From: a virus
Taxonomy: Duplodnaviria; Caudoviricetes
Strand: one strand, 5' to 3'
IMG/VR virus record: IMGVR_UViG_3300044940_000392
Coordinates: 1 to 62,237 of that record
DNA: 62,237 nucleotides
The first letter of the stretch is position 1; each line of letters starts with the position of its first letter. Below, piece after piece: positions 28,708 through 43,732 of the stretch. The notes beneath the pieces were generated by a model. It saw nothing but the letters and a program-made list of their open reading frames with translations, was not told the DNA's origin and did no database searches. The position numbers and the translations under genes are program-made.

Positions 28708-28754
28708 ATACTACATATTGTGGTGGGTTTAGGGGAAGATACTATATGTAGTGG
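28708..28754. promoter_or_regulatory. Tandem NrdR-box-like sites
   Basis: ATACTACATATTGTGG (28708) and ATACTATATGTAGTGG (28739), 31 bp apart; match acaCwAtATaTwGtg and its characteristic spacing. Confidence 0.65.
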
Positions 28755-28969
28755 TGTGGTGGAATAGATATTTGTTATTTGACTATAAGCGGGCGGGTGT
28801 ATATATGTGTGCGTGTATCTTAAACAACTTTTAGTGCGGGTGAAGTCAGATAGAGGGACCGCGAAAATAAGTGGAACAAACGGCGCCTATAGGTGCTATA
28901 GTATTAATAGAGAGATTCCTCTCAATCACGGTTTGGCCGTATTCCGTCAAACGGCCTATAGGAGTAAAT

Positions 28970-29236
28970 ATGGCTCGTGGGAAAACCACCACTAAGGCGT
29001 TTGTGGACGCCCGAATTAACGTTGAGGACCTCATTTGGCACATTGCCAAGCAGGGGGGACAGTATGTATCTCCCCTGAAGCTGGGGAAAATCTTGTATGA
29101 GCTTGAAGCTCAGATTCAGGACGCCGCTAAGGCAGCGATGATGGAAGCGGTTAAGAACCGCGTTCACCTTGCGGCAAATCTTCCGGTCAATGAAGAGGAA
29201 CTCACCACGGAGGATTACGTTTCTGTAATCCCCTAG
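28970..29236 (+). CDS. First early gene, hypothetical
   Basis: AGGAG SD then ATG at 28970 (MARGKTTTKAFV...); extended -10 TGCTATAGT upstream at ~28884. Confidence 0.7.
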   Translation: MARGKTTTKAFVDARINVEDLIWHIAKQGGQYVSPLKLGKILYELEAQIQDAAKAAMMEAVKNRVHLAANLPVNEEELTTEDYVSVIP

Positions 29237-29304
29237 ACAATTTACCTATAAGGGCATCCGTACTCAATAAGTCTGGGTGCCCTTATTCTATTTTAGGAGG
29301 AAAC

Positions 29305-29661
29305 ATGAATTACGAAATAGCCCAACAGTGGGTAGCCGCGCTGAGGAGCGGGGAATATGCCCAAGAAAAGTCTAGACTGAAATCAGACAACGGCTATTGT
29401 TGTTTGGGTGTTTTGTGTGATTTATACACAAAACAAAATCCATATGTAAAATGGAAGTCATTGGAATCAGTGACAGCATATTTCATTCTAGAGCATAGTC
29501 TTGTTCTGCCTTGCGAAGTGAAAGAATGGGCCAGAATGAAGTCGGAGTGCGGGCAATTCATCGAAGAAGGAATGTTTTTGCGACTAGATAAAATGAATGA
29601 CGACGGTCATTCATTTAACGAAATCGCCGATGTAATAGAAAAAGTGTGGGAGAGATTATAG
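29305..29661 (+). CDS. CCLGVLC-family protein, paralog 1
   Basis: W..ALRSG.Y.Q...L...GYCCLGVLCDL...LP..V.EWA...ND.G.SF.EIAD; AGGAGG SD. Confidence 0.85.
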   Translation: MNYEIAQQWVAALRSGEYAQEKSRLKSDNGYCCLGVLCDLYTKQNPYVKWKSLESVTAYFILEHSLVLPCEVKEWARMKSECGQFIEEGMFLRLDKMNDDGHSFNEIADVIEKVWERL

Positions 29662-29663
29662 CA

Positions 29664-29747
29664 ATGAATGAAATCAGCATGATTGCTTACATTCCCGCCG
29701 CAATCTTACTGATATCTTGGTATATCAGTAATCGGAATTCAATCTGA
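29664..29747 (+). CDS. 27 aa hydrophobic micro-peptide
   Basis: MNEISMIAYIPAAILLISWYISNRNSI; GGAG SD. Confidence 0.4.
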   Translation: MNEISMIAYIPAAILLISWYISNRNSI

Positions 29748-29941
29748 GAATTCACAAGGATATTATAGGGAAACCTATAGTATCCTTTGAATCTTTAGAT
29801 ATAGATTCAATTGTCATTTCACGTTCAGTCGCTTATCTTTCAATTCATTTATTTCGGGTATATATAATACTCCGGTCAAAATGTTTTGTAAGTTAGCGGC
29901 AATTATTTTCCGTCAATTTGTTTTTTAAGGAGAAAGGTTTC

Positions 29942-30964
29942 ATGGCTCATGAAATACAGCATTATGTCGGGCGGAAGTCCGCTTGGCATAATCTTGGGAC
30001 GGTATATGGAGATTATCTTTCCATAGATGATCTTCTAAACGATAGCGCGCTTAACTATACCGTAAGTAAGCGCCAGCTAGAATATGATAGAAAACCAATC
30101 GACGCATGGGGAACGTTTCGTGATGATACAAACGAATTTCTTTCTACAGTTGGAAAGGATTACGTTGTAATGCAGCACGTCGATGGTTTTAAGATTGCTG
30201 ATTCCTTTATAGGAAACGGCGTTACAAAGTTTGAAACAGCCGGAGTACTGGGAATCGGGGAGCGGGTTTGGTGCTTAGCCCGGCTTGACACTGATATTCT
30301 TATCGGCGGGGAGGATAAAATCGAGAATTATCTTTTATTCTCAACTTCCCACGACGGTTCTCTCGCGTTTGAATTTCGTCTTACAAATATCCGTGTTGTT
30401 TGTGCGAATACGCTCCGTGCGGCTAAGGCGCAAGGGCTGAGTAATTTCAAGGTTTACCATACTAAGAACGCGCAAGCCTCATTCGAACAGGCGCTTCAGG
30501 CAATGAAAGCTACAAGGGAGGAGTTGAAAACTGTTGAGGAGCAACTGAACTTCTTAAACTCCCGTGCCGTTCGGGAGAATGATATGAAAGAGATCTTCGA
30601 CGCTCTGTTCGGAAAGAAGGATTCCAAACGCGGCCAAACTCGGTTGGAGAATGTTTTGAATGACATTCTCGAATTGTATGAGTCCAACGACAATGACTCG
30701 TTTCCTCATCAGCGCGGCACTGCGTATAATCTGCTGAATGCTATTGTGGAATATACCGATCACGTTAAGGGAGGGTTTTCCAATCTCTCTTATGCAACCA
30801 TCGGAGCGGGCGCTAAACTTAAAGAAGCCGCGTATGAGATTATTTTGGACGCGGCGGGAAACATGATGCCGTCCAGTAATCGAGTTTATTATTCGATTCC
30901 TGCTGCTGAACCATCGAATGATGATGTCAACAAAAACGCAGTGAAAGAGTTGTTGGGTTTATAA
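29942..30964 (+). CDS. DUF932/DUF945 (TIGR03299-like) phage/plasmid protein
   Basis: MAHEI...AWH.LG, ETAG.L..G.RVW, SHDGS, T.IRVVCANTL, HT, GTAY.L.NA.VEY.DH. Confidence 0.88.
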   Translation: MAHEIQHYVGRKSAWHNLGTVYGDYLSIDDLLNDSALNYTVSKRQLEYDRKPIDAWGTFRDDTNEFLSTVGKDYVVMQHVDGFKIADSFIGNGVTKFETAGVLGIGERVWCLARLDTDILIGGEDKIENYLLFSTSHDGSLAFEFRLTNIRVVCANTLRAAKAQGLSNFKVYHTKNAQASFEQALQAMKATREELKTVEEQLNFLNSRAVRENDMKEIFDALFGKKDSKRGQTRLENVLNDILELYESNDNDSFPHQRGTAYNLLNAIVEYTDHVKGGFSNLSYATIGAGAKLKEAAYEIILDAAGNMMPSSNRVYYSIPAAEPSNDDVNKNAVKELLGL

Positions 30965-31022
30965 TAAAATACCCAGACCTGCTCGCTTTACTGCAAACAT
31001 TTGTTCAGAAAGAAAGGGTTAA

Positions 31023-31199
31023 ATGACTTACAGAGAACTATTGAAACTATTAGCTGAAATGTCCGAAGAGATTCTGGATCAAAACGTAACAGTGTTTGAT
31101 TCCGAATCTAAAGAGTATTATCCAATGGTTAAATACTCGGTTACAAAAGAAGATGATGTCTTAGATAAAGGACATCTCTTTCTGAGTTACGACAGATAA
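31023..31199 (+). CDS. Small conserved phage protein (58 aa, not in ORF track)
   Basis: MTYRELLKLLAEMSEEILDQNVTVFDSESKEYYP...DDVLDKGHLFL. Confidence 0.65.
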   Translation: MTYRELLKLLAEMSEEILDQNVTVFDSESKEYYPMVKYSVTKEDDVLDKGHLFLSYDR

Positions 31200-31379
31200 T
31201 TTTAAGAACATTTATAGACTACGTTCTTTTAAGCGCGTGGATGTCGTAGCTGAATTGTTCGGAATGTAAGTGGATTTATAGGGCGGATTTATTCAATTAA
31301 GTCCGCCCGGTTAAATTCATTTATTACTCAGCGAGTATATGAATTTACCGCAAAGTATGAACGAAGAGGAGAACTTTAG

Positions 31380-31649
31380 ATGAGTATCCAACAATATTTC
31401 ATAAAATTCGGATTGTTTAAGGTTACTTCGGGAAACGAAGTGGAGTTTCATCCTGTCATTCCGCAAACGAAAGTCACGCCAGATATGCAGCTTGGTTACG
31501 GTGTTTCTGTTTTCGGCTTTAGCACATTTGAACAGTGTTTCCAAACGCTGGAAGAGGCCATTGCGTATTGCCGCGAAGATTTCAAGGAAAACAAGGAATT
31601 TAAGATCATCGATGAGGATGCGCAGCTTCTCATTTCGATTAACGAATAA
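31380..31649 (+). CDS. Hypothetical protein
   Basis: GAGGAG SD; 89 aa. Confidence 0.65.
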   Translation: MSIQQYFIKFGLFKVTSGNEVEFHPVIPQTKVTPDMQLGYGVSVFGFSTFEQCFQTLEEAIAYCREDFKENKEFKIIDEDAQLLISINE

Positions 31650-31726
31650 TTGAGTGAAATTTATAAGCCGATTGAGTAAATTCAGTCGGTTTTTATAATT
31701 TTATTCAAGGAACAAGAAGGTATAAC

Positions 31727-32878
31727 ATGATCGAGTGCTTAAAGTCCAAATCTGGGAAAACTAAATTCTCAGATTACGAAATTTTGGAATATCCTAATAT
31801 GAGGAAAGGCGAGTATGCGGTTCCTATCGGTATGATTAAGACCGATATTGGAAATCTGTATTTATTCAGATTTATCATATTCGGCGGGGTTAATAATTTC
31901 TTTCATCAATCATACGTTCAAGTTATTTATGAACGTATGCCGATGAGTAGAACCAAAATTTTCTATTCAAACAGGGAATTAGAAAATAGTTTTGGTTATT
32001 ACAATGAATTTTTTTCTTCAGTGTATTGGTCGAATTGGAAGAAATCTAAAGATGATCCAATACTAATCAAACCGCGAAAATGTTCTAATTGGATCGAGAG
32101 GGAAATAGTACGGGTTGTATACGGGGAATACAATCTATTGGATAGCAATATCTTAGTCTATCCAATAAAGCACTTTCCGCATATTGTTGTTAAGGATAAG
32201 GAACTGTTTGTTTCTTTTATTCCTGACGATAAATACGGGGACGCGGACCGCCGGGTTCAAATGAAGATCGGACGGTATTTGACTAAATATACCGCGTATT
32301 CAAATGAGGAAATTAAAACTCTCATTCTAAAACTTAAAATTCATCATTTAGCTGAAAATAGTTTCAGCCTTCACTTCACTGAAGATAGAGATAAAATACG
32401 GGAAATTTTCGAGATTCCTATGTATGCTCAGGACTCCAGTCAAGTTTCCTGTATGTATAACAAATTTCAGGCTTGGGAATTTCGCCCATACGACATATAT
32501 GCTCACAACCCGACAATGTGTGTCGCATATATGACTTGCGAAGAACTCATTGTTGCGCGATCAGTAATTAATGTTGCAGAAAACGGCTACGTCCGCACAT
32601 ATGCAATAAAGGAAAATAATTCCTTATTGCATACTAAATTCCGTAAATTGTTACAAAGTGAAGGTTATCATAAAACCTCACTTGAAGGGTGCTGGTTTTA
32701 TGCTAATTATACTAAATCAGGCCACTTAATCGCGCCATATATTGATGGGGACGCACAGAAGGGAATAGCTTTAGGAACTAATCGAGTTTCGATTGTTAGT
32801 TCTGATGAATGGTCCTGCTGGGATTATGAATTCACTTCTACTGACGGCGTAGCTGAGCCGGGCAGCGAAGATAAATAA
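31727..32878 (+). CDS. Hypothetical SCM-motif protein, paralog A
   Basis: HFPHIVV, GRYL, SCMY, VAY, ARSV, YVR.Y, LEGC, APYIDG. Confidence 0.8.
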   Translation: MIECLKSKSGKTKFSDYEILEYPNMRKGEYAVPIGMIKTDIGNLYLFRFIIFGGVNNFFHQSYVQVIYERMPMSRTKIFYSNRELENSFGYYNEFFSSVYWSNWKKSKDDPILIKPRKCSNWIEREIVRVVYGEYNLLDSNILVYPIKHFPHIVVKDKELFVSFIPDDKYGDADRRVQMKIGRYLTKYTAYSNEEIKTLILKLKIHHLAENSFSLHFTEDRDKIREIFEIPMYAQDSSQVSCMYNKFQAWEFRPYDIYAHNPTMCVAYMTCEELIVARSVINVAENGYVRTYAIKENNSLLHTKFRKLLQSEGYHKTSLEGCWFYANYTKSGHLIAPYIDGDAQKGIALGTNRVSIVSSDEWSCWDYEFTSTDGVAEPGSEDK

Positions 32879-32896
32879 TTTTGAAGGAGAAAGAAT

Positions 32897-34027
32897 ATGA
32901 ATACTTCAAATGAACTAGAAGTTATTAAACTTGATGGTATTTATAATACTGAGCAGTATTTAATACCATTAGCAGTAGCGAAAACAAGCGTCGGAAACTT
33001 CTATCTCGCCAAGAATGTTTCTTTATTTAATTATCGGCAAGAGATAACAGTATCTGATTATCTTTTTGGATATGAAAGAAACCATCTTAGGCACTTTTAT
33101 TGTTTCTCCGACAGCAGGGAGATGAATAATTATTTTCTGCCAAATGGTTTCTTCGATATTGACATAACTGCTGTTCGGATTAAGAATATAATGAATGAAC
33201 CCGTCATTTGTTATTTGAAGAAAGTGAATGACTGGCGTGCCCGGGAATGCTATAAGATTGCCCTCGGAGAATATACTCCAATAAATCCAAACTACTTTAA
33301 GTATATCCCCCAACACTTTCCACATATCGTTGTGTACGAGAAAAACTTATATGTCTCGTATTTCATCAACGAAAAATACGGAGAATCGAATCGACGGGCT
33401 GTAACTCGATTGGGAAAATACTTGCGTAGTTTGAATATGTATTCAAACGAGGAAATTAAAGATATTGTTGAAAAAATGAAAATCAAATATATAGATTTTC
33501 ACGATTGTGAATTAAAATTTACATCCAATAAGGATAAGATTCGGCAGATATTTGAGACTCGAATGATGGCGGAAGATTCAGATAGAGTTTCCTGCATGTA
33601 TAATAAATTCAACCACTGGAAAGTTCGCCCTTACGACATATATGCTGATAATCCGACAATGGAAGTAGCATATATGGAACGCAAGGGGAAAATAATCGCA
33701 CGGTCAGTGATTAATTCATTAAGCCGTGGTTATGTGCGGCCCTATGCGATTAAAGAGGATAATAAAATGATTATCCATAAATTTATCGAACTTCTTTCCG
33801 ACAATAAATATAATAAAACAAGTCTTGAAGGGTGCTGTTTTACAGCTAACTATAATCAAGCGCTTGAATTAGTTGCGCCGTATATTGATGGTAAGGCGCA
33901 AAAAGGAGTTCTTTTACCAGATAGAAAGATAAGGATTGTACATAATAATTCGAAGAAATGGGACTTTGAATTCGACAATACCGAAGGGGTTGCCTTTGAT
34001 AATGATGAAAATGAGGAAATAGAATAA
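32897..34027 (+). CDS. Hypothetical SCM-motif protein, paralog B
   Basis: Same motif series as 31727..32878 with a divergent N-terminus. Confidence 0.8.
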   Translation: MNTSNELEVIKLDGIYNTEQYLIPLAVAKTSVGNFYLAKNVSLFNYRQEITVSDYLFGYERNHLRHFYCFSDSREMNNYFLPNGFFDIDITAVRIKNIMNEPVICYLKKVNDWRARECYKIALGEYTPINPNYFKYIPQHFPHIVVYEKNLYVSYFINEKYGESNRRAVTRLGKYLRSLNMYSNEEIKDIVEKMKIKYIDFHDCELKFTSNKDKIRQIFETRMMAEDSDRVSCMYNKFNHWKVRPYDIYADNPTMEVAYMERKGKIIARSVINSLSRGYVRPYAIKEDNKMIIHKFIELLSDNKYNKTSLEGCCFTANYNQALELVAPYIDGKAQKGVLLPDRKIRIVHNNSKKWDFEFDNTEGVAFDNDENEEIE

Positions 34028-34815
34028 TGCAAATAAGATTAGAGCAGATGTTACAGTACATGCGCCCGGCGGGGACTCATACTGAAGTAGAATTTATACA
34101 AAAGTATATAGATTCAATCGAAGGAATTAAAACTGATTCTTTCGGGAATAGAATTCTAGAATACCCGGGTTCGAAAGTACTAATTACATGTCACACTGAT
34201 ACAGTTCATAGAATGCCGGGGTTACAGAAGATTGAGAAAAAAGGTAATATAATCCAGTTATCGAAAAATAGTCAATCTAATTGTCTGGGCGCAGACAATA
34301 CAGCCGGGGTTTACGCGGCGCTAAAGATGATTCGGGCGGGAGTGCCGGTGTCGTTTGTTTTTCACCGGGCGGAAGAGTGCGGCGGACTAGGTTCAGCATA
34401 CTTTGTCCAAGTATTCGAAGAACATATACGGAAATATGATGTTTGTTTATCGCTCGATAGAAGAGGATATACAGATATCATTACGAAACAATCACTAACG
34501 CAAACAGCGAGCCGGGAGTTTGCTGAATCACTTGCAAATGAGTTGCAAATGGGTCATTTGCCATCAGAAAATGGAATATTTACTGATAGTCTTAATTACT
34601 CCCATATAGTTCGTGAATGTTCTAATTTATCAGTCGGATATTTTAACGAACATACTTCACGTGAGTATTTAGATAAAGATTACTTGGATAGATTAATACA
34701 AAAGCTAATCAAAGTAAACTGGCATAATTTGAAAATTGCGAGGAGTTTTCAGGAAGATTATCTGCTTGATGTTTTTGATGAAACGGATACTTTTAATATA
34801 TCCCGGTTTCTTTAG
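34027..34815 (+). CDS. M20/M28-family Zn peptidase
   Basis: CHTDTVH, LGADNTAG, AEECGGLGS, DRRG, FTDS, NLSVGY.NEHT..E. Confidence 0.9.
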   Translation: MQIRLEQMLQYMRPAGTHTEVEFIQKYIDSIEGIKTDSFGNRILEYPGSKVLITCHTDTVHRMPGLQKIEKKGNIIQLSKNSQSNCLGADNTAGVYAALKMIRAGVPVSFVFHRAEECGGLGSAYFVQVFEEHIRKYDVCLSLDRRGYTDIITKQSLTQTASREFAESLANELQMGHLPSENGIFTDSLNYSHIVRECSNLSVGYFNEHTSREYLDKDYLDRLIQKLIKVNWHNLKIARSFQEDYLLDVFDETDTFNISRFL

Positions 34816-34860
34816 TAAGTAATCATAATTGGTGTAAATGAGTGTATAAGTACTACTTAT

Positions 34861-34889
34861 TTGCACCGCATATACGAACATAGTACAAT
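34861..34889 (+). promoter_or_regulatory. Sigma70-type promoter
   Basis: TTGCAC-17 nt-TACAAT followed by a GGAGG SD. Confidence 0.7.
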
Positions 34890-34919
34890 AGAGAGAGCCA
34901 TAGGGAGGAGAGACTAGAA

Positions 34920-35093
34920 ATGCGTAAATTGAAGTGTACATTCCAGTTCAAAGGAACTGATAAAGGAATTGTTTTTTACGATACGGCTGATAGCTCGATG
35001 GATGAAATACGAGTTAAAGCCGTCGATCAATTATTGAAGCTATTCCCGGAAATGAAAGATGAAACGGTGGAGGGGGAAATCGAATGGATGTAG
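34920..35093 (+). CDS. Small hypothetical protein (57 aa)
   Basis: GGAGGAG SD; MRKLKCTFQFKG... Confidence 0.6.
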   Translation: MRKLKCTFQFKGTDKGIVFYDTADSSMDEIRVKAVDQLLKLFPEMKDETVEGEIEWM

Positions 35094-35263
35094 AAATGGA
35101 GAGAAAGGCTTGCGTTAAATTGGCGCGGAAAATATTAAATAATCGAGATAAATTTGAGAAAAAGTCTTGCGATTTGATTGATCTAGCGGAGTATTTTATT
35201 ATTCTCGATAATAAATTGAAAACGGGCGCTGATTTTCCTCATTGCTGGTTGGTTAATAAATGA
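35084..35263 (+). CDS. Small hypothetical protein (59 aa)
   Basis: GGAGG SD; LAEYF..LD..L..G.DFP..W pattern. Confidence 0.6.
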   Translation: MDVEMERKACVKLARKILNNRDKFEKKSCDLIDLAEYFIILDNKLKTGADFPHCWLVNK

Positions 35264-35442
35264 GAGCTTGCTGTGAAAAGGAAATTACGGAATTAAATAA
35301 GAAAAGTGCATATTTTTCTTGTTATATTCCATTCGGTTTTAGTAGTAAAATTCCAGTAACTTATCATAATGGAGAAAAAGTTATGATAAATGGAGTTGAG
35401 AAAAAGAAAAGGGGAGAGAGAATCGTATGTTTCAGAAGTTAG
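35260..35442 (+). CDS. Small hypothetical protein
   Basis: ATGA overlap with the preceding ORF. Confidence 0.5.
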   Translation: MRACCEKEITELNKKSAYFSCYIPFGFSSKIPVTYHNGEKVMINGVEKKKRGERIVCFRS

Positions 35443-35579
35443 TTGCGACACTTATTCTGATATTTTCAATCGTAATGTTTGTAACATTACTTTGCTCAAC
35501 TAATGTTCAGAAAAACGCGTCCGATTGGGGCATTTTGGCATTAATTCTTTTTATTCTTCTAAAGGATGACAATGGATAA
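35427..35579 (+). CDS. 50 aa two-TM membrane peptide
   Basis: MFQKLVATLILIFSIVMFVTLLCS...WGILALILFILLKDDNG. Confidence 0.55.
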   Translation: MFQKLVATLILIFSIVMFVTLLCSTNVQKNASDWGILALILFILLKDDNG

Positions 35580-35670
35580 AGACCTAATATACATGCTATA
35601 TATTCTTATAGTAATCGGATTAGCCGCGGTTGCTGTTGAATATTTCAATAATGGAGGATTAAATGATTAA
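35572..35670 (+). CDS. 32 aa single-TM peptide
   Basis: MDKDLIYMLYILIVIGLAAVAVEYFNNGGLND; AAGGA SD. Confidence 0.5.
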   Translation: MDKDLIYMLYILIVIGLAAVAVEYFNNGGLND

Positions 35671-36307
35671 ACATGTTAGATACGGGTTTGCCAATAACTC
35701 GTCATCAAGCCATTCGCTGATTATGACTAAAGATCCAGTTAAATTGAAAGAAAAACCTGAAAAGGATTTTGGATCTTTTGGGTGGGATTTTTTTGTATTA
35801 AAAACGCCGGAGAATAAAATCCGGTATATGTTTTCTCAAATTTTTGATTTTCTATGTAGAAGATCAAAAATCACTTGGCCTTCCCCGGAACATGTTATTG
35901 AAAACGAGAAAAGAAAAATCCACGAAAAAGTATTTCTTTTTTTCCTCGCCCGGTATCCTAAATACACGAATCAATTACCAGCTTTCAGTGCACACAACAA
36001 TTATGTAGACCACCAAAGTCAATTCTGTTTCCCGGAATACGCCGACGGGACTTTGAATTGGAATTTTTGTCAAGCGTTTATTGACTTCATTCTCCGGGAC
36101 GATATCACAATTCTCGGCGGGAATGATAATGAATATAGTCCGAAATCGTGGAATAAGTATTCCGACGATGTTATTTACCTGTTCAAATTCATGACGGATA
36201 CGCGGACAAAATTCCGTGCCCGGTTTGATGTAAATAACAACACATGGGTTATTTATGACCGCAAAACTGGACAGAAAGTTTCTATAAATTTTAAGGAGAT
36301 AGCATGA
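35663..36307 (+). CDS. NSSS-motif protein (radical-SAM partner)
   Basis: R.GF.NNSSSSHS, YVDHQS, GGNDN. Confidence 0.8.
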   Translation: MIKHVRYGFANNSSSSHSLIMTKDPVKLKEKPEKDFGSFGWDFFVLKTPENKIRYMFSQIFDFLCRRSKITWPSPEHVIENEKRKIHEKVFLFFLARYPKYTNQLPAFSAHNNYVDHQSQFCFPEYADGTLNWNFCQAFIDFILRDDITILGGNDNEYSPKSWNKYSDDVIYLFKFMTDTRTKFRARFDVNNNTWVIYDRKTGQKVSINFKEIA

Positions 36308-37098
36308 TCGAGAATAAAGCCTACATGCCAGAATTGGTCGATTTGAAGATTACAGATTACTGTAATTACAATTGTGTGTATTGTTATCAAAATAGTACTA
36401 CAGAAGGACGGCACGCGGAGATAGATTTGATCGAAGATATTATTCTCGATTGCGTGAATAATGAAGTATTTGAAATCGCTATCGGAGGCGGCGAACCAAC
36501 GACTCATCCTGATTTTCTCCGTATTTTGAAATTCGGGCGCGAAAATGGAATTCAATTGAATTTCACAACTAGAAATTCAAAATTTCTAATGCAAAATGCT
36601 TGGCTTCTTGAACATCATTCAGTCGCTTTTTCCATTGATTCTGTAACGGCAATTGAATGGTATGCCTCTATTATGCATCTTCCACAATTACAATTTACGC
36701 CTCAACTAGTATCCGGTGTTCTTACGGAAGAACAATATACTCGGATAATGGAATTTTGTAAGGAAAAAGAAATAATTCCAACTTTACTCGGCTTTAAGCA
36801 GGTCGGGCGCGGCGGCCCATTTAAGCTGGTCCATTCACAAGCTAAAATGACGCCGGACGCGGAAATTGAAATCGCGCTTCGGACGTTCGGAAAAATCAAT
36901 GTGGATACCGCAATGCTTAAACAATGTTCCAGCGTAACTGGGTCGATTTGTAAAAAACTATTTTTCACAAACGAGGGGCTAGTTTCTTGTTATATCGACG
37001 CGGTTAATAAAACAATTGCTTCATCGTCTTATCACGAGGAAACAGCGATTCCTTATCATTCATTAAGAAAAGACTGGAAGAAACTTCCGGTTGTTTAG
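36304..37098 (+). CDS. Radical SAM protein
   Basis: CNYNCVYC, GGGEPT.HP, NFTT, EG..SCYIDAV. Confidence 0.92.
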   Translation: MIENKAYMPELVDLKITDYCNYNCVYCYQNSTTEGRHAEIDLIEDIILDCVNNEVFEIAIGGGEPTTHPDFLRILKFGRENGIQLNFTTRNSKFLMQNAWLLEHHSVAFSIDSVTAIEWYASIMHLPQLQFTPQLVSGVLTEEQYTRIMEFCKEKEIIPTLLGFKQVGRGGPFKLVHSQAKMTPDAEIEIALRTFGKINVDTAMLKQCSSVTGSICKKLFFTNEGLVSCYIDAVNKTIASSSYHEETAIPYHSLRKDWKKLPVV

Positions 37099-37120
37099 TT
37101 TAATTAAAGGATATAAAAAA

Positions 37121-37726
37121 ATGAATCTCGACATAATCAGAAACCTGACAATTCTGTATAATTCCACAAACCCGTCCCGCCGTTTTGAGGGTTTGAAATT
37201 CTGGAATGAAATTTCCGACAAAGTTTACCGAGAGGCGCGGACGTTTCATATTCCTGATAAAATCCTCTGCGGTATGACTGCGATTCTATCGCCGGGCGTA
37301 GAATTAAAGAAAGCTCTTGAATATTCATTGCAAATCGCGGATGAGCTTAAACGTGGATATAAGATGAATGAATTAACTCTCCTCGGCGCGTATGGATGGA
37401 ATAATTTATCCAAAGCGGCGGAGTTATTCTTAACCGGAAAAGTCGATCTTATTTCTGGAAATAAAGTAGTTAATACTTATGAACTACTCGTAAGACCGAA
37501 TCGAGAAAATGTTTCAATTGGACGAAATGAAAAACGGGCGGCGTATAATGATTTCGTCACTGATGATTCTAAGTTGAAAATTTCCCCGAAAGAATATGAG
37601 TTCCTCGCGGAGCATTACAGATACGCCGCAGGCGAATTAAATCTCAGACCTTGCGATTTACAGGCGGTTATTAATATTCAAGTAAAAGAATATTTTGCAC
37701 GAACCTTGTATGGTGTTATCGTATGA
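37121..37726 (+). CDS. HhH-glycosylase-like phage protein (DUF7178-like), probably degenerate
   Basis: A.LSP, G.KV, Y..AA..L...P..LQAV motifs; expected VT.D.HA replaced by VSIGRNE. Confidence 0.6.
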   Translation: MNLDIIRNLTILYNSTNPSRRFEGLKFWNEISDKVYREARTFHIPDKILCGMTAILSPGVELKKALEYSLQIADELKRGYKMNELTLLGAYGWNNLSKAAELFLTGKVDLISGNKVVNTYELLVRPNRENVSIGRNEKRAAYNDFVTDDSKLKISPKEYEFLAEHYRYAAGELNLRPCDLQAVINIQVKEYFARTLYGVIV

Positions 37727-37809
37727 AAGATATCATACTTTGGGTATTGGTGTTTTTTCTAATGGTTGAAGTAATCGCCAGTTACTTTGAAAGGAAAATT
37801 AATGAATAA
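37723..37809 (+). CDS. 28 aa single-TM peptide
   Basis: MKDIILWVLVFFLMVEVIASYFERKINE; ATGA overlap. Confidence 0.5.
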   Translation: MKDIILWVLVFFLMVEVIASYFERKINE

Positions 37810-38161
37810 AGAAATTAAAGAAAAATGGATCGCCGCGCTTCGCAGTGGTGAATATACACAAGCAAAAGAAGTATTAAAAAATGAAGATAGTTTTTGTTGC
37901 CTAGGTGTTCTATGCGACTTGTATTCAAAAGAAAAGAATATACCATGGAAACCCGGGGGGATCGGTCTTTCAATAGAAGATTGCTATTTTTCCTTACCTG
38001 CTAAAGTTATTGACTGGGCGGGATTCAAAAATAAAAAACCAATTCCAATAGTGACTTTACCTGATGAGCGTGCTGTGGATCTTTCCGCGTTAAATGATAC
38101 GTTTAACTTTTCATTTAACCAAATTGCGGATTTAGTTGAACAACAAGGAGATAATTTGTAA
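37802..38161 (+). CDS. CCLGVLC-family protein, paralog 2
   Basis: WIAALRSGEY.Q...FCCLGVLCDL...LP..V..WAG...LND...SF.QIAD. Confidence 0.85.
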   Translation: MNKEIKEKWIAALRSGEYTQAKEVLKNEDSFCCLGVLCDLYSKEKNIPWKPGGIGLSIEDCYFSLPAKVIDWAGFKNKKPIPIVTLPDERAVDLSALNDTFNFSFNQIADLVEQQGDNL

Positions 38162-38550
38162 TGTCGTTAAATATTGAATTATTAAATAAAGTGAAGGAAT
38201 GTATCTTAAATGATCCTTCTCAATTTGATATGGATTATTTTCACATGGAGGATCCAGAATCTACTTGCCAGACAACTTCATGTATCGCTGGATGGGCCGC
38301 TTATTTGAACAATCCTGAATGGTATAATTCAGCATCATTAAATGAAAATTTTACCTATTTTCTTTCTTTTGAGGGTGAATATGTCCTCGGATTAACTTCT
38401 TTGCAAGCAGGAAAACTGTTCTATTATCATAGGTGGCCGAAACAGTTTGCAGAAGCATATTCAAAAGCGAAATTAGAAAATAACAAAAAGCAAATGGCGA
38501 AAGTAGCTGCGGATTACATTGATTATTTTATTAAAAATAAGGATGAATAA
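38161..38550 (+). CDS. Hypothetical phage protein (C.TT.CIAGWA motif)
   Basis: FDM..F...CQTTSCIAGWA...LGL...A..LF. Confidence 0.75.
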   Translation: MSLNIELLNKVKECILNDPSQFDMDYFHMEDPESTCQTTSCIAGWAAYLNNPEWYNSASLNENFTYFLSFEGEYVLGLTSLQAGKLFYYHRWPKQFAEAYSKAKLENNKKQMAKVAADYIDYFIKNKDE

Positions 38551-38949
38551 ATGCTTCTTCAGACAAAAATTACGATTTTAAATATAAATGAAATTCAATC
38601 GGTGAAAATTACAGAGAATGATATTACTGTTCTATTCAAAGGACGTAATGATTCCGTAATTTTACATGATCCCGACATGGTTGAAATGTTAAAAATTTCC
38701 TTTGCTGCGGGACTTATTACCCCGGAAATTGCAAAAACTCAAAATATAGAGTATTCAAAACTCGTTAAACTTCAAGCTGCCCAGTCCGCACTGAAAGCAA
38801 AAATTCAACAAAAAATGGTTCTTGCGGAAATCGCGGAAATGGAGGAAGATTTGGAATACATTGAAAAATACGGTATTCAAGAATTTATCGCCCGCGGTCA
38901 AAAATTTCCTCCGCCGATTGTGACTCCCGGCGGAAACAATGTCCAGTAG
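38551..38949 (+). CDS. Hypothetical protein
   Basis: 132 aa; beta N-terminus plus coiled coil. Confidence 0.65.
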   Translation: MLLQTKITILNINEIQSVKITENDITVLFKGRNDSVILHDPDMVEMLKISFAAGLITPEIAKTQNIEYSKLVKLQAAQSALKAKIQQKMVLAEIAEMEEDLEYIEKYGIQEFIARGQKFPPPIVTPGGNNVQ

Positions 38950-38963
38950 AAAATTATTCAAAA

Positions 38964-39881
38964 ATGAAAGGAAAAATAATGTTCAAACCATCCGCTGAAA
39001 TTCTAAACTACGTAGTAACCAAATCGGGTGACCGATTAATTTCATTCAAACTCACAATGCACCGATGGGTTCTTTCTGAATTTAATACCCACCGCGCATT
39101 TTCCCGCAATTCCGCATCTTCCCGTGCTATTCCGATTCATAAAATGATCGAATTAGCAGAAACTTCTGATGTTGCTCCCGTCGAATGGGGTAAGAATTGT
39201 TCAGGAATGTCAAATAAGGAGATTATTTCTGAACAAAGTATTTTAGCTTCTATTCAAAATGAATGGGAAATTGCGCGGCATAATGCTATCGAATCAGCTA
39301 GACGATTAAATAATCTTAATGTTCACAAACAAATTGTGAATAGAATTCTTGAACCATTTTTACCTCATACAGTAATCGCAACAATGGACCGACAAGCATT
39401 GGAACATTTTCTAATGCTAAGAACTTCAATTGAAGCTCAACCTGAAATCCGCGCACTGGCCTTAGAAATGCAAAGACTATATCATTCAACGCGTCCGGGA
39501 ATGTTGTATGATTTTCAAATCTATTCGCCATTCGGAATCTATGAATGGGAATGTCTTAATATGACAGAAGTTCCCGATGATCAAACCGGGCAATACGAGA
39601 ATAAATTAATGTATTCTCCAGTAATTTACCGTGACGTTTCAAAATGTGCGCGAATTTCCTATTTGAAACATGAGGAAACCGCGTCTGAAGAGAAGGATGA
39701 GAATTTGTTCTGGAAGTTGTTCAAAGCAAAGCATTTAAGCCCGTTCGAGCATCTTGCTTTATATGACCCGCAACGACGTTTTAGTAGATTTTTCGGATAC
39801 TTCGGTGAGGAAGATTTATACAAATCTAATTTTCCGAAAACATTCATTCAGCTAAGAAAGCTGATTGAAATGAATTTCTAA
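38964..39881 (+). CDS. thyX: Flavin-dependent thymidylate synthase
   Basis: EFNTHRAFSRNSASSRAIP, HKQIVNRILEPF, AQPEI, CARISY, H.SPFEH. Confidence 0.9.
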   Translation: MKGKIMFKPSAEILNYVVTKSGDRLISFKLTMHRWVLSEFNTHRAFSRNSASSRAIPIHKMIELAETSDVAPVEWGKNCSGMSNKEIISEQSILASIQNEWEIARHNAIESARRLNNLNVHKQIVNRILEPFLPHTVIATMDRQALEHFLMLRTSIEAQPEIRALALEMQRLYHSTRPGMLYDFQIYSPFGIYEWECLNMTEVPDDQTGQYENKLMYSPVIYRDVSKCARISYLKHEETASEEKDENLFWKLFKAKHLSPFEHLALYDPQRRFSRFFGYFGEEDLYKSNFPKTFIQLRKLIEMNF

Positions 39882-39889
39882 CCCCCGCT

Positions 39890-40051
39890 TCGCATATATA
39901 CGCACGCGACATGATTACTAATATATATATTATATATAATAAAAACCGCATGTATACGCAGAGGCGCGTATATGGTAAGTGCGCGGACGTGCATATATGG
40001 TAAACGCATGTGGGCGCGTATATGGTAAACACGTCGTATATATGCTATGAT
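39890..40051. repeat. Iteron-like direct repeats and (AT)n tract; candidate replication origin/operator
   Basis: GCGTATATGGTAA-type units at ~39967, 39991, 40017, 40035; AT-only run ~39919-39945. Confidence 0.6.
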
Positions 40052-40276
40052 GAAACCGTAGCCCGTCGAGTGTGGAACTGGTACTTTGGTACTGGTGGTG
40101 AAGCCCTTGAGACGCGCCGTTAAAACCTCTCCCCTTGAGCCACAGAGGGCCGCTATTGAATCGGTCCGCTGTGCCGGGGGTGACTAGGCCAATGCCGAGG
40201 CCGACGCAATACAGAGCGTTTCTGGGCCAAAACGGACACATAAATTTCAACTGAAAAATAAAAAAAGAGGAAAAAA

Positions 40277-40633
40277 ATGAATCAAAAAATTGCAAAAAAA
40301 TGGATCGATGCTTTGCGTAGTGGGCAATATAGAAAATCTAAACATTGTCTTAAAAATAAACGCGGTTATTGTTGTTTAGGTGTATTAACGGATTTATACA
40401 GAAAAGAACATAAAAAAGAATGGGATTATAATTCAAACCATAAACAATATTCTTTTATGTTTGCATATAATTTCTTACCAAAAGAAGTTATAGAATGGGC
40501 CGGAATGAGAAATGAGTTTGGAGAGTTTTATGTAAATAAAGAAAAAAGAATTACATTATATGAAGAAAATGATAAAGGAAAATCGTTTTCAGAGATTGCG
40601 GATATTATTGAAAAATATCTGGAAGTATTGTGA
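40277..40633 (+). CDS. CCLGVLC-family protein, paralog 3
   Basis: WIDALRSGQY...GYCCLGVLTDL...LP.EV.EWAG...ND.G.SFSEIADIIE. Confidence 0.85.
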   Translation: MNQKIAKKWIDALRSGQYRKSKHCLKNKRGYCCLGVLTDLYRKEHKKEWDYNSNHKQYSFMFAYNFLPKEVIEWAGMRNEFGEFYVNKEKRITLYEENDKGKSFSEIADIIEKYLEVL

Positions 40634-40637
40634 ATTT

Positions 40638-40751
40638 ATGAAAAAACAAAAACTTGTCGAAACAGCATTTGAAGCAATGATTAAGGCAATTAAGCCTGAA
40701 GTTAATAAACTTGTTAAATTTTACGAAAAAAATTATAAGGAAAAAGTATAA
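40638..40751 (+). CDS. Small basic peptide
   Basis: MKKQKLVETAFEAMIKAIKPEVNKLVKFYEKNYKEKV. Confidence 0.45.
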   Translation: MKKQKLVETAFEAMIKAIKPEVNKLVKFYEKNYKEKV

Positions 40752-40762
40752 GGAAAATTATC

Positions 40763-41170
40763 ATGAAAACTCTAAACATTAAATTGTCTGCTCCCGAAGG
40801 TTTTGAATTTATTCCATTTGATACCGAGCCGCGCTTTTTAGAAAAAGATGAATATGGAATTATTTATCCTAACGATGATTCGGAAGATAATGTAATAAAA
40901 GCTAAAGAAAAAACTTTATTAAAATATATCCCTTTAAGAAAGTTTTCTCAGTTGCCTAAAATTTCATTCAAAGTGGACAGTTCACATTCATATAATGAAA
41001 ACATCTGTATCCCTGATGGATATGTTATTTTAGGTTTCGATAAATTATTCTATTTACAACAGAGTGGCGCGGATTATTGGTTAGATTCTTTTGGAAAAGT
41101 CAGAGAATTTAATAATGCCGATGGAATTGATTCTTATCAATTCTGGTTCGGATTAAAAAAGAGACCATAA
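40763..41170 (+). CDS. Hypothetical protein with two P(E/D)G(F/Y) units; paralog of 44080..44520
   Basis: APEGFEF...EYG / IPDGY...GFD...G.V...GLKK. Confidence 0.7.
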   Translation: MKTLNIKLSAPEGFEFIPFDTEPRFLEKDEYGIIYPNDDSEDNVIKAKEKTLLKYIPLRKFSQLPKISFKVDSSHSYNENICIPDGYVILGFDKLFYLQQSGADYWLDSFGKVREFNNADGIDSYQFWFGLKKRP

Positions 41171-41210
41171 AAAATTAATTACTTTTTTAAGAGAGGAAAT
41201 AAAAAATAAA

Positions 41211-41606
41211 ATGAATACTCAAATTGCACAGGAGTGGGTTTATGCTTTAAGGAGCAGAAAATATGAACAAGCAAAAGGTAATTTGAAAACATTTTCAGGT
41301 TATTGCTGCTTGGGTGTTTTATGTGATTTACATAAAAACCAAACACAAGAAGGTGAATGGATAATTTCCCAAGATGGAAATTATTGTTATAAAACAAAAT
41401 CTGAAGAATCTAGAATTTTTTTACCTGAAGAAGTCGTTGAATGGGCGGGAGTAAAAACATTCAATCCTTATATTACAAACGAAGAAAAATGCGAAAAAAC
41501 GGATAAAAAATTTATGAAAAAAATACCGTTATCACGATTGAATGATAATTATTGGAACTTTCGTGAAATTGCTGAAATCATTGAAAAATATCAGGAGGAA
41601 CTATAA
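41211..41606 (+). CDS. CCLGVLC-family protein, paralog 4
   Basis: Same scaffold motifs. Confidence 0.85.
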   Translation: MNTQIAQEWVYALRSRKYEQAKGNLKTFSGYCCLGVLCDLHKNQTQEGEWIISQDGNYCYKTKSEESRIFLPEEVVEWAGVKTFNPYITNEEKCEKTDKKFMKKIPLSRLNDNYWNFREIAEIIEKYQEEL

Positions 41607-41607
41607 A

Positions 41608-41997
41608 ATGAAAGTTGAAATTGCACAAAAATGGATTAATGCATTAAGAAGAGGTGAATATGCACAAATAAAAAGAACCTTGAAATCTTTTTCCGGCTTT
41701 TGTTGTTTAGGTGTTCTATGTGACATTCATAGAAAAGAAACCGGAAAAGGCAATTGGGATTTTCAGTCATCAAATGGTGAAATTTGTTATAACATTGATG
41801 CAAGAGATTATACTGCTTTCTTACCGAAAGAAGTGTGTGAATGGGCAGGTATAAAAGAAGAAGATCCTAGAGTATTATTAAGTGACGAAGAAAATCCTGC
41901 TGAAAAAAACATGTCCTCTTTATCATCCTTAAATGATAGTGGAACTAGTTTTTCGGAAATTGCGGATATTATTGAGGAAAATATCGAAACAATATAA
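41608..41997 (+). CDS. CCLGVLC-family protein, paralog 5
   Basis: AGGAGG SD then ATG at 41608; same scaffold motifs. Confidence 0.85.
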   Translation: MKVEIAQKWINALRRGEYAQIKRTLKSFSGFCCLGVLCDIHRKETGKGNWDFQSSNGEICYNIDARDYTAFLPKEVCEWAGIKEEDPRVLLSDEENPAEKNMSSLSSLNDSGTSFSEIADIIEENIETI

Positions 41998-42009
41998 GAA
42001 GAGATTATA

Positions 42010-42363
42010 ATGAATATACAAATTGCTGAAAAATGGATTGAAGAATTAAGAAGCGGAAACTACGTACAAGGAAAGTTTAAGCTAAAATCCAATGAAGGAT
42101 ATTGTTGCTTAGGTGTTCTATGTGAGCTTTATCTGAAAGAAAATCCTAAAAAAGAAAACTGGAAATACAATAAAATAGTAGATGCATACACAATTTTTAA
42201 TGAGTATGATTATTTACCTGAAGAAGTCCAGAAATGGGCGGAAATAAAATCAGATGATGCATATCTTTCTCCGGGTGTATCTTTAAGTATCTTGAATGAT
42301 CGTCTTGATTATGATTTTAATCGAATCGCACAAATTATCGAAAATGAAAAGGAATTTCTATAA
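42010..42363 (+). CDS. CCLGVLC-family protein, paralog 6
   Basis: Same scaffold motifs (CCLGVLCEL). Confidence 0.85.
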   Translation: MNIQIAEKWIEELRSGNYVQGKFKLKSNEGYCCLGVLCELYLKENPKKENWKYNKIVDAYTIFNEYDYLPEEVQKWAEIKSDDAYLSPGVSLSILNDRLDYDFNRIAQIIENEKEFL

Positions 42364-42726
42364 ATGGAAATTTTCATTAATGGTTTACGCGAAGTAGAAA
42401 CAAAAAGTGGAAAAAACGCGGGGAGAAAATCTTTATTCTTTTCCGTCGCGTTCAAAATTGGGAATTCATTAATCATAACCACCGGGTGGAGATTATTTGA
42501 TAAAAAAATCCATCCTCAAATGGCTATGTACGGCGGCGGCAGGATTTTAAATCTATCCGCCGTTGATTCAGCAACCGCCGCGATGATTTATTTTAAATTG
42601 AAAGAAAAACTAGTAGATGAATATTCAAAATATGAATTATCAGAAGATTTGAATGAAGCAACGCGGTTAATCATCGCACGGAAGTCTGATGTACAAAAAA
42701 TGCTACCGGAGTTAATCAATGCCTAA
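42364..42726 (+). CDS. Hypothetical protein
   Basis: 120 aa ORF within the operon. Confidence 0.65.
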   Translation: MEIFINGLREVETKSGKNAGRKSLFFSVAFKIGNSLIITTGWRLFDKKIHPQMAMYGGGRILNLSAVDSATAAMIYFKLKEKLVDEYSKYELSEDLNEATRLIIARKSDVQKMLPELINA

Positions 42727-43732
42727 GGCTGTAAAGTATGACTTTACTGAAAACGGAATTCAAGCTCGAATTGATAAATTCAATTCAGAACTGATCGGAC
42801 AAGATCACGTTAAAAAGTCTTTTGAGAAAGTTTTCAAACAGATTTATTTTGACGAAACATTTGGCTTCAAGGAAAATTCGATAATCGGCGCGGCGTTTCT
42901 ATGCGGGCCATCTGGAAGTGGTAAAAGCTTCGCCGCAACCGCAATGAGCAAGGCTATTCATGGCACGGATAGACATATTCTTAAAGTGAATTGTAATGAA
43001 TATGTAAACGATCATGAAATTGCTAAATTACTCGGAGCGCCGCCCGGATATTTAGGACACAGGGAAACACAACCGTTATTGTCTCAAGCGCGGTTGAACG
43101 CGGTAGCTTCGGAATTGTCCCCGGTTTCAATCATTCTATGGGATGAAATTGAAAAAGCATCTCCAAAGTTTGCTGATACAATCATGCAAATTCTCGACCG
43201 GGGTATTCTTCGTGTCGGAGATAATTCGCTTGTAAATTTTGAAAAAACATATCATTTGTTTACAACGAATATCGGATATAAATATAATTCATCAAGTTTT
43301 CTTTTAGCGGAAAATCAGAATAAAGAAAAAGATCAGATGGCCGCGCTTCGTAAAAATTTCCGCCCGGAATTTCTTAACCGAATCTCCTCTTTTTTGTTCT
43401 TCAATCCGTTTTCTAAAGCAGAAATTCAAAAACTGTTTGAAAAAATGTTGGTTGAACGCTTCGCTAATATTAGGCTTCAGGCTTCAGCACTTAAAGCGCG
43501 GTTAAATAAAATCGTTCTTTCTGTGAATTGCATGAACGAATACTTACCGAGGTTATCCGATTCAGTTTCCGGCGCGAGGAATATTAAGTATATCATTAAC
43601 AATGAGTTCTACCTCGTCGGGGCTGATCGGGTTTGTAAAGAAATAAATGATCTTCCAGAAGATTTTAATATTTACTTTGATTTCGTAAAAAACGAGTTAA
43701 TCGCTGAAATTATAACCGCCTATGAAGATTAA
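42719..43732 (+). CDS. Single-ring ClpB/ClpA D2-like AAA+ ATPase (AAA_2)
   Basis: IGQD, GPSGSGKS, LLGAPPGYLG, DEIEKA, QILDRG, FRPEFLNRI, GARN. Confidence 0.9.
   Translation: MPKAVKYDFTENGIQARIDKFNSELIGQDHVKKSFEKVFKQIYFDETFGFKENSIIGAAFLCGPSGSGKSFAATAMSKAIHGTDRHILKVNCNEYVNDHEIAKLLGAPPGYLGHRETQPLLSQARLNAVASELSPVSIILWDEIEKASPKFADTIMQILDRGILRVGDNSLVNFEKTYHLFTTNIGYKYNSSSFLLAENQNKEKDQMAALRKNFRPEFLNRISSFLFFNPFSKAEIQKLFEKMLVERFANIRLQASALKARLNKIVLSVNCMNEYLPRLSDSVSGARNIKYIINNEFYLVGADRVCKEINDLPEDFNIYFDFVKNELIAEIITAYED

Follow-up and report, generated by a model that had tools for sequence, protein, structure and literature searches.

Why would a single phage genome keep six versions of the same small gene? 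The question is raised by the IMG/VR record IMGVR_UViG_3300044940_000392, a tailed phage whose complete, 62,237-bp sequence, bounded by direct terminal repeats, we analyzed in full and refer to as the window. Between positions 29305 and 42363, the window encodes six related proteins of 117 to 131 amino acids, all of which belong to DUF8296, a protein family already catalogued among phages. The answer toward which we lean, tentatively, is that copies of DUF8296 constitute a panel of early host-directed binders or inhibitors built around a shared conserved site. The six genes are as follows, each with its isoelectric point (pI) and the E values of its matches to phrog_18067, a PHROG profile, and to a profile of the six copies.

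29305..29661, plus strand: DUF8296 paralog 1, 118 amino acids, pI 5.0; phrog_18067 E 1.5e-23; six-copy profile positions 1-120/120, E 5e-54; the identical protein P0002 carries the PF26948 label
37802..38161, plus strand: DUF8296 paralog 2, 119 amino acids from the ATG at 37802 (alternative TTG at 37787), pI 4.8; phrog_18067 E 2.4e-21; six-copy profile E 4.7e-49
40277..40633, plus strand: DUF8296 paralog 3, 118 amino acids, pI 9.15; phrog_18067 E 1.2e-19; six-copy profile E 1.3e-54
41211..41606, plus strand: DUF8296 paralog 4, first of a tandem trio, 131 amino acids, pI 5.6; phrog_18067 E 4.6e-19; six-copy profile E 9.9e-53
41608..41997, plus strand: DUF8296 paralog 5, second of the trio, 129 amino acids from the ATG at 41608, pI 4.7; phrog_18067 E 1e-20; six-copy profile E 1.5e-53
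42010..42363, plus strand: DUF8296 paralog 6, third of the trio, 117 amino acids, pI 4.7; phrog_18067 E 7.9e-18; six-copy profile E 7.7e-49

Searching the entire 62,237-bp record with the six-copy profile returns exactly six places, all of them full length, with E values of 1e-49 to 1e-54 and without internal stops. Three of the copies are dispersed and three lie in tandem, with paralog 5 starting 2 nucleotides past the stop of paralog 4. Pairwise identities among the six are 39 to 48% for protein and 53 to 60% for DNA, and 28 alignment columns are invariant, including W9, L13, R14, Y18, C32-C33-L-G-V-L37, L68-P69, V72, W75-A76, N98-D99, F104, I107-A108, and E112; W50, which lies within the first of two variable segments, is likewise invariant in all six copies. 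Five of the six proteins are acidic (pI 4.7 to 5.6). Paralog 3 is the only basic copy, and in it, Thr replaces the third Cys (CCLGVLT) and Lys occupies the position of Gln20; paralog 4 has the longest second variable segment of the six. Upstream Shine-Dalgarno sequences are clear in four copies (AGGAGG, AAGAGG, AGAGAGG, and CAGGAGG) and weak in two.

An earlier, sequence-only reading of the window had described six intact paralogous open reading frames, the last three in tandem, with three conserved blocks and mostly clear Shine-Dalgarno sites, and the reading frames, their translations, the profile search of the record, the 28 invariant columns, and the four clear ribosome-binding sites uphold each of these points. 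Its statement that the intervening segments differ completely is right as to their variation in sequence and length but goes too far, given the invariant W50 and the modeling of both segments as ordered beta-hairpins (see below). Its designation of the six as early genes derives from their position in a plus-strand block of replication and nucleotide-metabolism genes; a scan for promoters and terminators did not rise above chance (68 promoter sites versus 58 ± 8.7 expected).

The six proteins belong to DUF8296. The PHROG family phrog_18067, listed as of unknown function, matches all of them (E 8e-18 to 1.5e-23) over positions 1 to 127/128 of a 129-position profile; a precomputed PF26948.1 label is attached to four window proteins among the matches listed, and to 120/120 of the listed matches. 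The Atlas name for PF26948 is DUF8296 (Pfam 38.1), and all 30 of the nearest clusters there are DUF8296, being 93 to 96% viral. Scans of the six proteins and of the gene that begins at 38161 against NCBIfam and a copy of Pfam that does not include the PF26948 model yielded only noise (UDI, E 0.094; UBA_2, E 0.14). A signature consisting of W9, L13, C32-C33-L-G-V-L, L68-P69, W75, N98-D99, F104, and I107-A108 is invariant in the six and 88 to 100% conserved in 419 sampled members of the family, although conservation of the retrieval motifs in this sample is overstated, because its loci were fished with the motifs [FY]CCLGVL[CT] and W-x-AL-[RK]-SG-x-Y and its proteins are the top profile matches. 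The six window genes are thus members of a family that is catalogued as both PHROG 18067 and Pfam DUF8296, and the set is neither newly discovered nor, as had been proposed, an undescribed system. The accompanying claim that the family has no assigned function was correct: PHROG gives it as unknown function, Pfam gives it a DUF label, and a literature search found no paper naming PF26948, DUF8296, or phrog_18067 and nothing on phage tandem paralogs tied to anti-defense.

DUF8296 is large and almost entirely viral. A HMMER search of 1.84 billion cluster representatives recovered 41,273 clusters (at 50% identity) at an E value of ≤1e-3 and 22,224 at 1e-10. The phages or prophage-like regions that carry it derive from Actinomycetota, Pseudomonadota, Bacteroidota, Planctomycetota, Cyanobacteria, Saccharibacteria, Deinococcus, and archaeal metagenome-assembled genomes. 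Among 50,697 cultured-phage records, a single query turned up the family in only 13, and among 72,556 plasmid records, in 2; on account of this rarity, we regard it as an accessory family. Its cultured carriers include Synechococcus phages B3 and B23 (four to five copies) and Alteromonas phages vB_AmaP_AD45-P1 to P4. Some proteins contain several DUF8296 domains per chain, with two in P0122, P0255, P0257, P0258, and P0263 and three in P0123. In another protein, P0264, a long insert splits the DUF8296 domain, and the N-terminal part ahead of it, which bears a C-A-A-G-H motif, is unrelated.

How unusual is a set of six? We surveyed 113 DUF8296 loci, comprising the window, 80 viral loci, and 32 loci in prokaryote assemblies; only the surrounding 8 to 10 kb on either side was considered, such that copy numbers are lower bounds. 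There was one copy in 83 loci, two in 16, three in 7, four in 1, five in 2, six in 3 (the window, L077, and L099), and eight in 1 (L020). Among the 112 loci other than the window, 29 carry two to eight copies, and 4 of the 113, the window included, hold six or more. Possession of six copies, which had been called exceptional, is high, but with 30 of 113 loci multicopy, it represents the upper tail of a family habit and is not unique; the window has more copies than most members of the family and differs from them in nothing of kind. The comparison of copy number across relatives that the sequence-only reading had proposed does reveal changes among related phages, whose orthologous arrays comprise eight copies in L020, six in L077, five in L018, and four in L040. 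Orthologs in the arrays of L020 and L077 are 55 to 70% identical, paralogs are about 45% identical, and the last copy is 70 to 73% identical across all four phages.

The copies in the window are old. Over the most conserved 44 codons (the N-terminal block), the proportion of synonymous differences (pS) between copies is 0.49 to 0.94, i.e., saturated, whereas the proportion of nonsynonymous differences (pN) is 0.21 to 0.31, from which we conclude that these are ancient duplicates maintained by purifying selection. Across the 15 pairs, no two copies have an exact run of DNA in common longer than 17 nucleotides, and most pairs share 8 to 13. A tree of the six copies, which has low resolution at 118 columns, recovers the sister pairs 29305+42010 and 41211+41608, with 40277 nearby and 37802 apart and most isolated, at depths of roughly 1.7 to 2.3 substitutions per site; the sisters at 29305 and 42010 (paralogs 1 and 6) are 12.7 kb apart in the genome. 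The set had been ascribed to a gene accordion, but the 53 to 60% DNA identity, the short shared runs, the saturated pS, and the dispersal of three copies over 13 kb lend this view no support, nor is the DNA encoding CCLGVLC similar enough in the window to support recombination, as had also been asserted. A repeat scan of positions 28000 to 43500 detected only the paralog blocks, and no search was aimed at a reverse transcriptase or at template/variable repeat pairs of a diversity-generating retroelement.

A recombination-prone constant block does exist elsewhere in the family. In Synechococcus phage B23 (L113; MN695335, positions 52972 to 54902), four DUF8296 genes lie side by side (gp84, gp85, gp86, and gp88), and tblastn locates five DUF8296 places in the genome. 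The first 141 nucleotides of the four copies are 77 to 89% identical, with exact runs of 20 to 40 nucleotides, and the 3' parts are diverged, a mosaic structure suggestive of gene conversion or an exchange of cassettes. Younger duplicates, with 0.85 to 0.91 DNA identity in the N-terminal block, also occur in L001, L002, and L014. Because orthologous arrays differ in size and some loci contain such young duplicates, DUF8296 arrays appear to evolve by birth and death, that is, by slow tandem duplication and loss and not by a recent accordion. Having been kept for so long, the copies in the window are probably nonredundant.

To what structure does this sequence pattern correspond? An AlphaFold2 model of paralog 1, based on an 87-sequence alignment, has a predicted local distance difference test score (pLDDT) of 97.3 and a predicted template modeling score of 0.91. 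Its N-terminal half consists of a helix (residues 3 to 14), a small hairpin (20 to 31), and Cys32 positioned right before a helix at 33 to 44 (CLGVLCDLY...); the C-terminal half consists of a hairpin (50 to 52/58 to 61), a helix (70 to 76; V..WAG), a second hairpin (84 to 87/90 to 93), and helices at 94 to 99 (L..LND) and 104 to 114 (F.EIA..IE). The predicted DUF8296 fold is therefore a small alpha/beta domain in which a five-helix conserved core carries two variable beta-hairpins (at about 45 to 67 and 79 to 93), and from this order of elements, the segments previously called hypervariable loops can be equated with the two hairpins, both confidently modeled. Column entropy is 3 to 4 bits at residues 45 to 67 and 79 to 93 and below 1 bit in the conserved blocks. 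Among 407 distinct members, the first segment ranges from 11 to 45 amino acids, the second from 7 to 38, and the core from 66 to 88; Asp, Glu, Asn, Ser, Tyr, Phe, and Trp are abundant in the hairpins, and the median pI of these members is 4.69, with 82% below 6 and 10% above 8.

No solved structure resembles this model. Foldseek against the PDB gave 0 matches at an E value of ≤0.001 (best, 0.34), VIA-align against 48,161 representative chains gave 0 at a Z score of ≥5 (best, 3.9, with a root mean square deviation of 3.8 over 73 residues), and a sequence-profile search of the PDB gave 0 matches; matches in BFVD were to uncharacterized phage proteins only. The monomer modeling and Foldseek search that had been suggested as a check of the sequence-only reading thus produced a confident single fold with hairpins as its variable segments, but matched no solved relative. 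A homodimer prediction for paralog 1 scored 0.02, which gives no verdict and is evidence neither way.

The most conserved positions point to a common site. In the 419 sampled members, C32, G35, V36, N98, and D99 are invariant; W9, L13, Y18, Q20, C33, L34, L37, F104, and I111 are at least 97% conserved; and R14, S15, G16, C38, D39, P69, W75, and E112 are 87 to 96% conserved. Eleven of the conserved residues are polar or small (R14, S15, G16, Y18, Q20, C32, C33, G35, D39, N98, and D99, at 87 to 100%), and because so many of the kind occur in a protein of 118 residues, we infer that all copies share one functional site. Judging from secondary structure and helical periodicity, on which all statements here about pockets and faces are based, residues 32, 35, and 38/39 would form a stripe along a single face of the central helix, in which the invariant glycine suggests the close approach of something. 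Such a site would be no less compatible with a sponge or an enzyme than with an antibody-like binder.

If the hairpins confer specificity, do they bear the imprint of an arms race? We compared nonsynonymous-to-synonymous rate ratios (omega) in codon alignments of three groups of close orthologs (7, 5, and 7 sequences) by simple Nei-Gojobori counting. Omega for the core was 0.27, 0.12, and 0.23 in groups 1, 2, and 3, and that for both hairpins together was 0.77, 0.29, and 0.30. Pooled over groups, the hairpins contain 66 amino acid-variable and 25 synonymous-only codons versus 50 and 54 in the core (Fisher P = 7e-4). The only region in which omega exceeds 1 is the second hairpin of a T7-like group (1.56 on 17 codons, 7 of them amino acid-variable and 0 synonymous-only), a value that comes from tiny counts. 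In this group, amino acid changes cluster at codons 62 to 70, 101 to 114, and 130 to 140; at one site, the seven near-identical alleles have D, V, Q, or E, and in several codons two or three bases differ, which hints at allele exchange. Overall, the hairpins evolve at two to three times the rate of the core, under relaxed purifying selection and with no demonstrable positive selection, and they may be hot spots in some lineages. The description of the family as antibody-like, with hypervariable loops on one fold, accordingly holds for a constant core bearing two fast-changing segments, as seen in both the entropy profile and the pooled codon counts, but not for diversifying selection, with omega for the two hairpins together below 1 in all three groups.

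Our preferred, still tentative, interpretation of DUF8296 as a panel of early host-directed binders or inhibitors would account for these features in the following way. The six genes are anciently duplicated members, each kept by selection and each specifying a small cytoplasmic, mostly acidic alpha/beta domain. In its conserved core, the central helix CCLGVL is N-capped by an invariant Cys, and a conserved S-G-x-Y-x-Q loop and an invariant Asn-Asp are further constant elements. Made together with early or replication genes, the proteins would act on host components, the conserved site providing the same basic activity or contact in every copy and the hairpins a different specificity for each, such that several old copies would cover several targets, plausibly in host defense or other aspects of host takeover.

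Several considerations weigh against this interpretation. The host-directed role is read from position, size, charge, and evolutionary pattern. The eleven conserved polar or small residues would be expected more of an enzyme or small-ligand site than of a scaffold that only binds proteins, and a host range that extends from Actinomycetota to Cyanobacteria, Saccharibacteria, and archaeal metagenome-assembled genomes favors a universal target (a small molecule or nucleic acid, for example) over defense proteins specific to particular lineages. One window copy is basic (pI 9.15), and as hairpin omega is below 1 in all three ortholog groups, an arms race has not been demonstrated.

The same considerations lend substance to a different possibility, which comes close behind in probability: that DUF8296 proteins are thiol-dependent enzymes or binders of small ligands or metals, acting in the manner of sponges. 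Cys32, Cys33, Gly35, Cys38/Asp39, the S-G-x-Y-x-Q loop, and Asn98-Asp99 would then form one predicted pocket, over which the hairpins would serve as lids that tune the substrate or ligand, with different paralogs covering different nucleotides, metabolites, or modified substrates. Consistent with this, C32, G35, V36, N98, and D99 are invariant, and Y18, Q20, C33, and S15 at least 96% conserved, among the 419 members, and the 87-sequence alignment shows little or no variation at the same residues; C32, C33, N98, D99, Y18, and E112 are retained by all six window copies. In the model, C32 comes just before helix 33 to 44, and an N-cap position before a helix classically lowers the pKa of a thiol. 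The likely placement of 32, 35, and 38/39 along a single face of the helix, the great breadth of the host range, which would suit a universal small-molecule target, and a similarly placed cysteine in a companion family (C41, the only invariant Cys of that family, directly before a helix at 42 to 50) point in the same direction. Set against these are the lack of a conserved His or other classical catalytic partner, the failure to match any solved enzyme or sponge fold, the inflation of conservation values by the way in which the sample was collected, and the possibility of CCLGVL being no more than a tightly packed buried helix.

Gene neighborhoods bear on a third explanation, in which the paralogs are subfunctionalized housekeeping factors of the phage that might, for example, regulate or assist replication or nucleotide metabolism, with no link to defense. 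Within the window, the copies are interspersed on the same strand with genes for ThyX, a radical SAM enzyme, an AAA+ ATPase, nucleases, and DNA polymerase A, and purifying selection on old copies would suit any stable function. When neighbors were clustered over the 113 loci, no conserved partner gene emerged, and the commonest neighbor family (DUF932) was present in just 10 loci, the window among them, 7 of which come from one T7-like lineage. In the seven loci of that lineage, the DUF8296 gene lies upstream of a single-subunit RNA polymerase. Other neighbors include a helicase (9 loci), an orphan N6/N4 DNA methylase (5 loci), and an ArdA-like protein (6 loci, a weak match at E 5.7e-4 that is below the Pfam cutoff). 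Copies in bacterial assemblies sit amid HNH, integrase, GP88, PolA, ThyX, YqaJ, and DnaB genes and, given these neighbors, are in prophage-like DNA. Taken together, the neighborhoods are circumstantial evidence for an accessory gene of the early or takeover region. A housekeeping role is unlikely in view of the patchy distribution of the family (the 13 of 50,697 cultured-phage records), the absence of a conserved partner and of a fixed genomic position, the variation in copy number among close relatives, and the mostly acidic character of its members, which have no recognizable DNA-binding motif.

Slightly less probable again is that the paralogs are subunits of one hetero-oligomeric or multidomain assembly and are needed together, as could be imagined from the natural chains with two or three DUF8296 domains and from the tight spacing of tandem genes (41606/41608 in the window and 4-nucleotide overlaps in other arrays). 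A single copy evidently suffices for most phages (83 of 113 loci), copy number is unequal between related phages, and only about 10 long forms were found among thousands of members, some of which may be gene-calling fusions. Finally, although the hairpins are under relaxed constraint and no function is known, it is highly improbable that the expansion lacks adaptive meaning and consists of neutral passengers or decaying duplicates, a view that comes close to being refuted by six anciently diverged copies that are intact, full length, and in possession of every invariant family residue despite saturated synonymous sites, and by the core omega of 0.12 to 0.27 among orthologs.

The cysteine of the companion family mentioned above raises the question of whether DUF8296 has kin. 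The representative of this family in the window is as follows.

38161..38550, plus strand: companion gene, 129 amino acids, start overlapping the stop of paralog 2; phrog_889/phrog_30739, motif CGTxxC(I/L)AGW, no Pfam match

With a local iterative profile, the companion family was detected in 14 of the 112 other DUF8296 loci (L033, L052, L056, L081, L029, L042, and L109 among them) and thus, with the window, in 15 of 113 within 10 kb; in 8 loci, again including the window, it lies at most 500 bp from a DUF8296 gene. Like DUF8296, it is small, phage borne, uncharacterized, and multicopy, with four copies each in L033 and L052, and its sole invariant Cys occupies the same place before a helix as does Cys32. 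Unlike DUF8296, the model of the 38161 protein (pLDDT of 88.5) is all helical, without the two beta-hairpins, and the two families have no sequence-profile similarity (hhalign probability of 0.2 to 0.3%). A structure search of the Atlas with the 38161 model retrieved DUF8296 clusters at template modeling scores of 0.54/0.60 and 0.59/0.60, along with neighbors that include DUF6197, and one BFVD protein (A0A142K951) is a weak match of both the paralog 1 and the 38161 models. Among PDB folds, the 38161 model matched none (best Z score, 4.1). Marginal in-register matches of a hidden Markov model of the 38161 family to DUF8296 fusion proteins (E 0.012 to 0.04 in a 15-sequence search) were not counted as evidence. 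Among the papers listed for DUF6197 (a genome announcement) and DUF932, none appears to be functional work.

The companion family and DUF8296 may be distant relatives or functional partners. Going beyond this, one can conceive of the two as a single large, unrecognized superfamily of mini-domains that are carried by phages, marked by an "N-cap cysteine," and built on a fold absent from solved structures. Its members would be arranged in mixed, long-lived, and slowly reshuffled arrays, and each would rely on the same reactive Cys/Asn-Asp site to capture or alter an immune signal or effector of the host, a different one in each case. We consider this doubtful as a whole, but were it true, the superfamily would constitute a new class of counter-defense proteins present in tens of thousands of phage lineages that infect bacteria and archaea.

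What kind of genome maintains this array? Its other features relevant here are as follows.

13924-16137, minus strand: portal
16301-18565, minus strand: large terminase
25045-26916, minus strand: ribonucleotide reductase
About 27.6-57.7 kb, plus strand: block including DUF932, radical SAM enzyme, DUF7178, ThyX, AAA+ ATPase, PD-(D/E)XK nuclease, and DNA polymerase A
29918-30964, within this block: DUF932 gene, directly downstream of paralog 1
31727-32878 and 32897-34027, plus strand: two adjacent paralogous genes (383 and 376 amino acids), without a Pfam family
34027-34815, plus strand: M28-like peptidase
Between this peptidase and the radical SAM gene, plus strand: protein of 214 amino acids
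36304-37098, plus strand: radical SAM enzyme
37091-37726, plus strand: DUF7178

The phage is distant from every cultured phage: its large terminase is at best 27% identical to that of any of them, and a megablast search of positions 29000 to 43000 against cultured phages returned zero matches. Public runs that contain window DNA carry hot-spring or microbial-mat metagenome labels, and four of these runs may be the source of the record itself; no RNA run is listed among them. Contigs of run X5 represent a relative, with 90 to 96% identity given for contigs that cover paralogs 2 and 4 and the 38161 gene and mostly 93 to 99% over much of 29000 to 43000, from which we conclude that a sister strain is present in another sample; the contigs cover paralog 2, the 38161 gene, and the start of paralog 4 but are fragmented around the array, and regions without contig cover carry no information. 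A joint in X5 that connects 37855 to 41698 was considered as a deletion and rejected, as one of its sides comprises only 26 letters, with 39 foreign letters in addition, and it is read as another paralog cross-matching the conserved blocks.

Several local features of the window stand apart from the paralogs. The adjacent genes at 31727-32878 and 32897-34027 share DNA blocks that are 70 to 73% identical at an offset of 1143 nucleotides (repeat families D6, D7, and D10), and enzyme-like genes form a run on the plus strand from 34027 to 37726, set among the DUF8296 paralogs. In an otherwise tightly packed genome, an intergenic gap of 395 nucleotides (39882 to 40276) separates ThyX from paralog 3 and contains, in order, an AT-only stretch (39920 to 39946), three 25-nucleotide direct repeats with GCGCGTATATGGTAA (39957 to 40031), and a GC-rich stretch; the gap could be an origin or regulatory region. 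The RNA fold of its GC-rich portion (40040 to 40250) was no better than those of shuffled sequences (z = -1.09), and a scan of the window for tRNAs and Rfam families, the latter including the gap, found none. The lowest G+C content of the genome, 0.322 versus 0.35 to 0.45 elsewhere, is in the region of the tandem array (40001 to 42000).

Where does the family stand among characterized systems? Small acidic proteins with which phages counter host defenses include the DNA mimics Ocr and ArdA and the signal sponges Tad1, Tad2, and Acb2. DUF8296 proteins resemble these in their length of roughly 100 to 130 amino acids, in their acidity (five of the six window copies), and in their placement among early or accessory genes, but the DUF8296 model has no fold match to any solved structure, and sponge and DNA-mimic chains were absent from the PDB matches listed by Foldseek and VIA-align. 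To our knowledge, a conserved Cys/Asn-Asp site is not a feature of either the Ocr/ArdA or the Tad1/Tad2/Acb2 families. Gene accordions of the poxvirus K3L type produce near-identical, recent copies, and SUKH proteins form tandem arrays of immunity proteins. DUF8296 has in common with both a small, putatively host-directed family in multiple copies whose number is unequal between relatives; it departs from the K3L accordion in the 53 to 60% DNA identity and saturated synonymous sites of the window copies, and none of the SUKH structures in the PDB was matched by its model.

Families with such properties have repeatedly proved to be host-takeover or counter-defense factors, but DUF8296 could equally be a new small enzyme. 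The window set is worth experimental follow-up for the sake of the family, within which the window itself is not special, and it offers a clean natural experiment in the form of six anciently separated, intact copies in one 62-kb genome. Our analysis also points to cultured phages that carry DUF8296 and to a companion family that is possibly linked to it. DUF8296 is among the larger phage-only families without a function, and a function established for a single member would extend to the annotation of phage genes in the tens of thousands.

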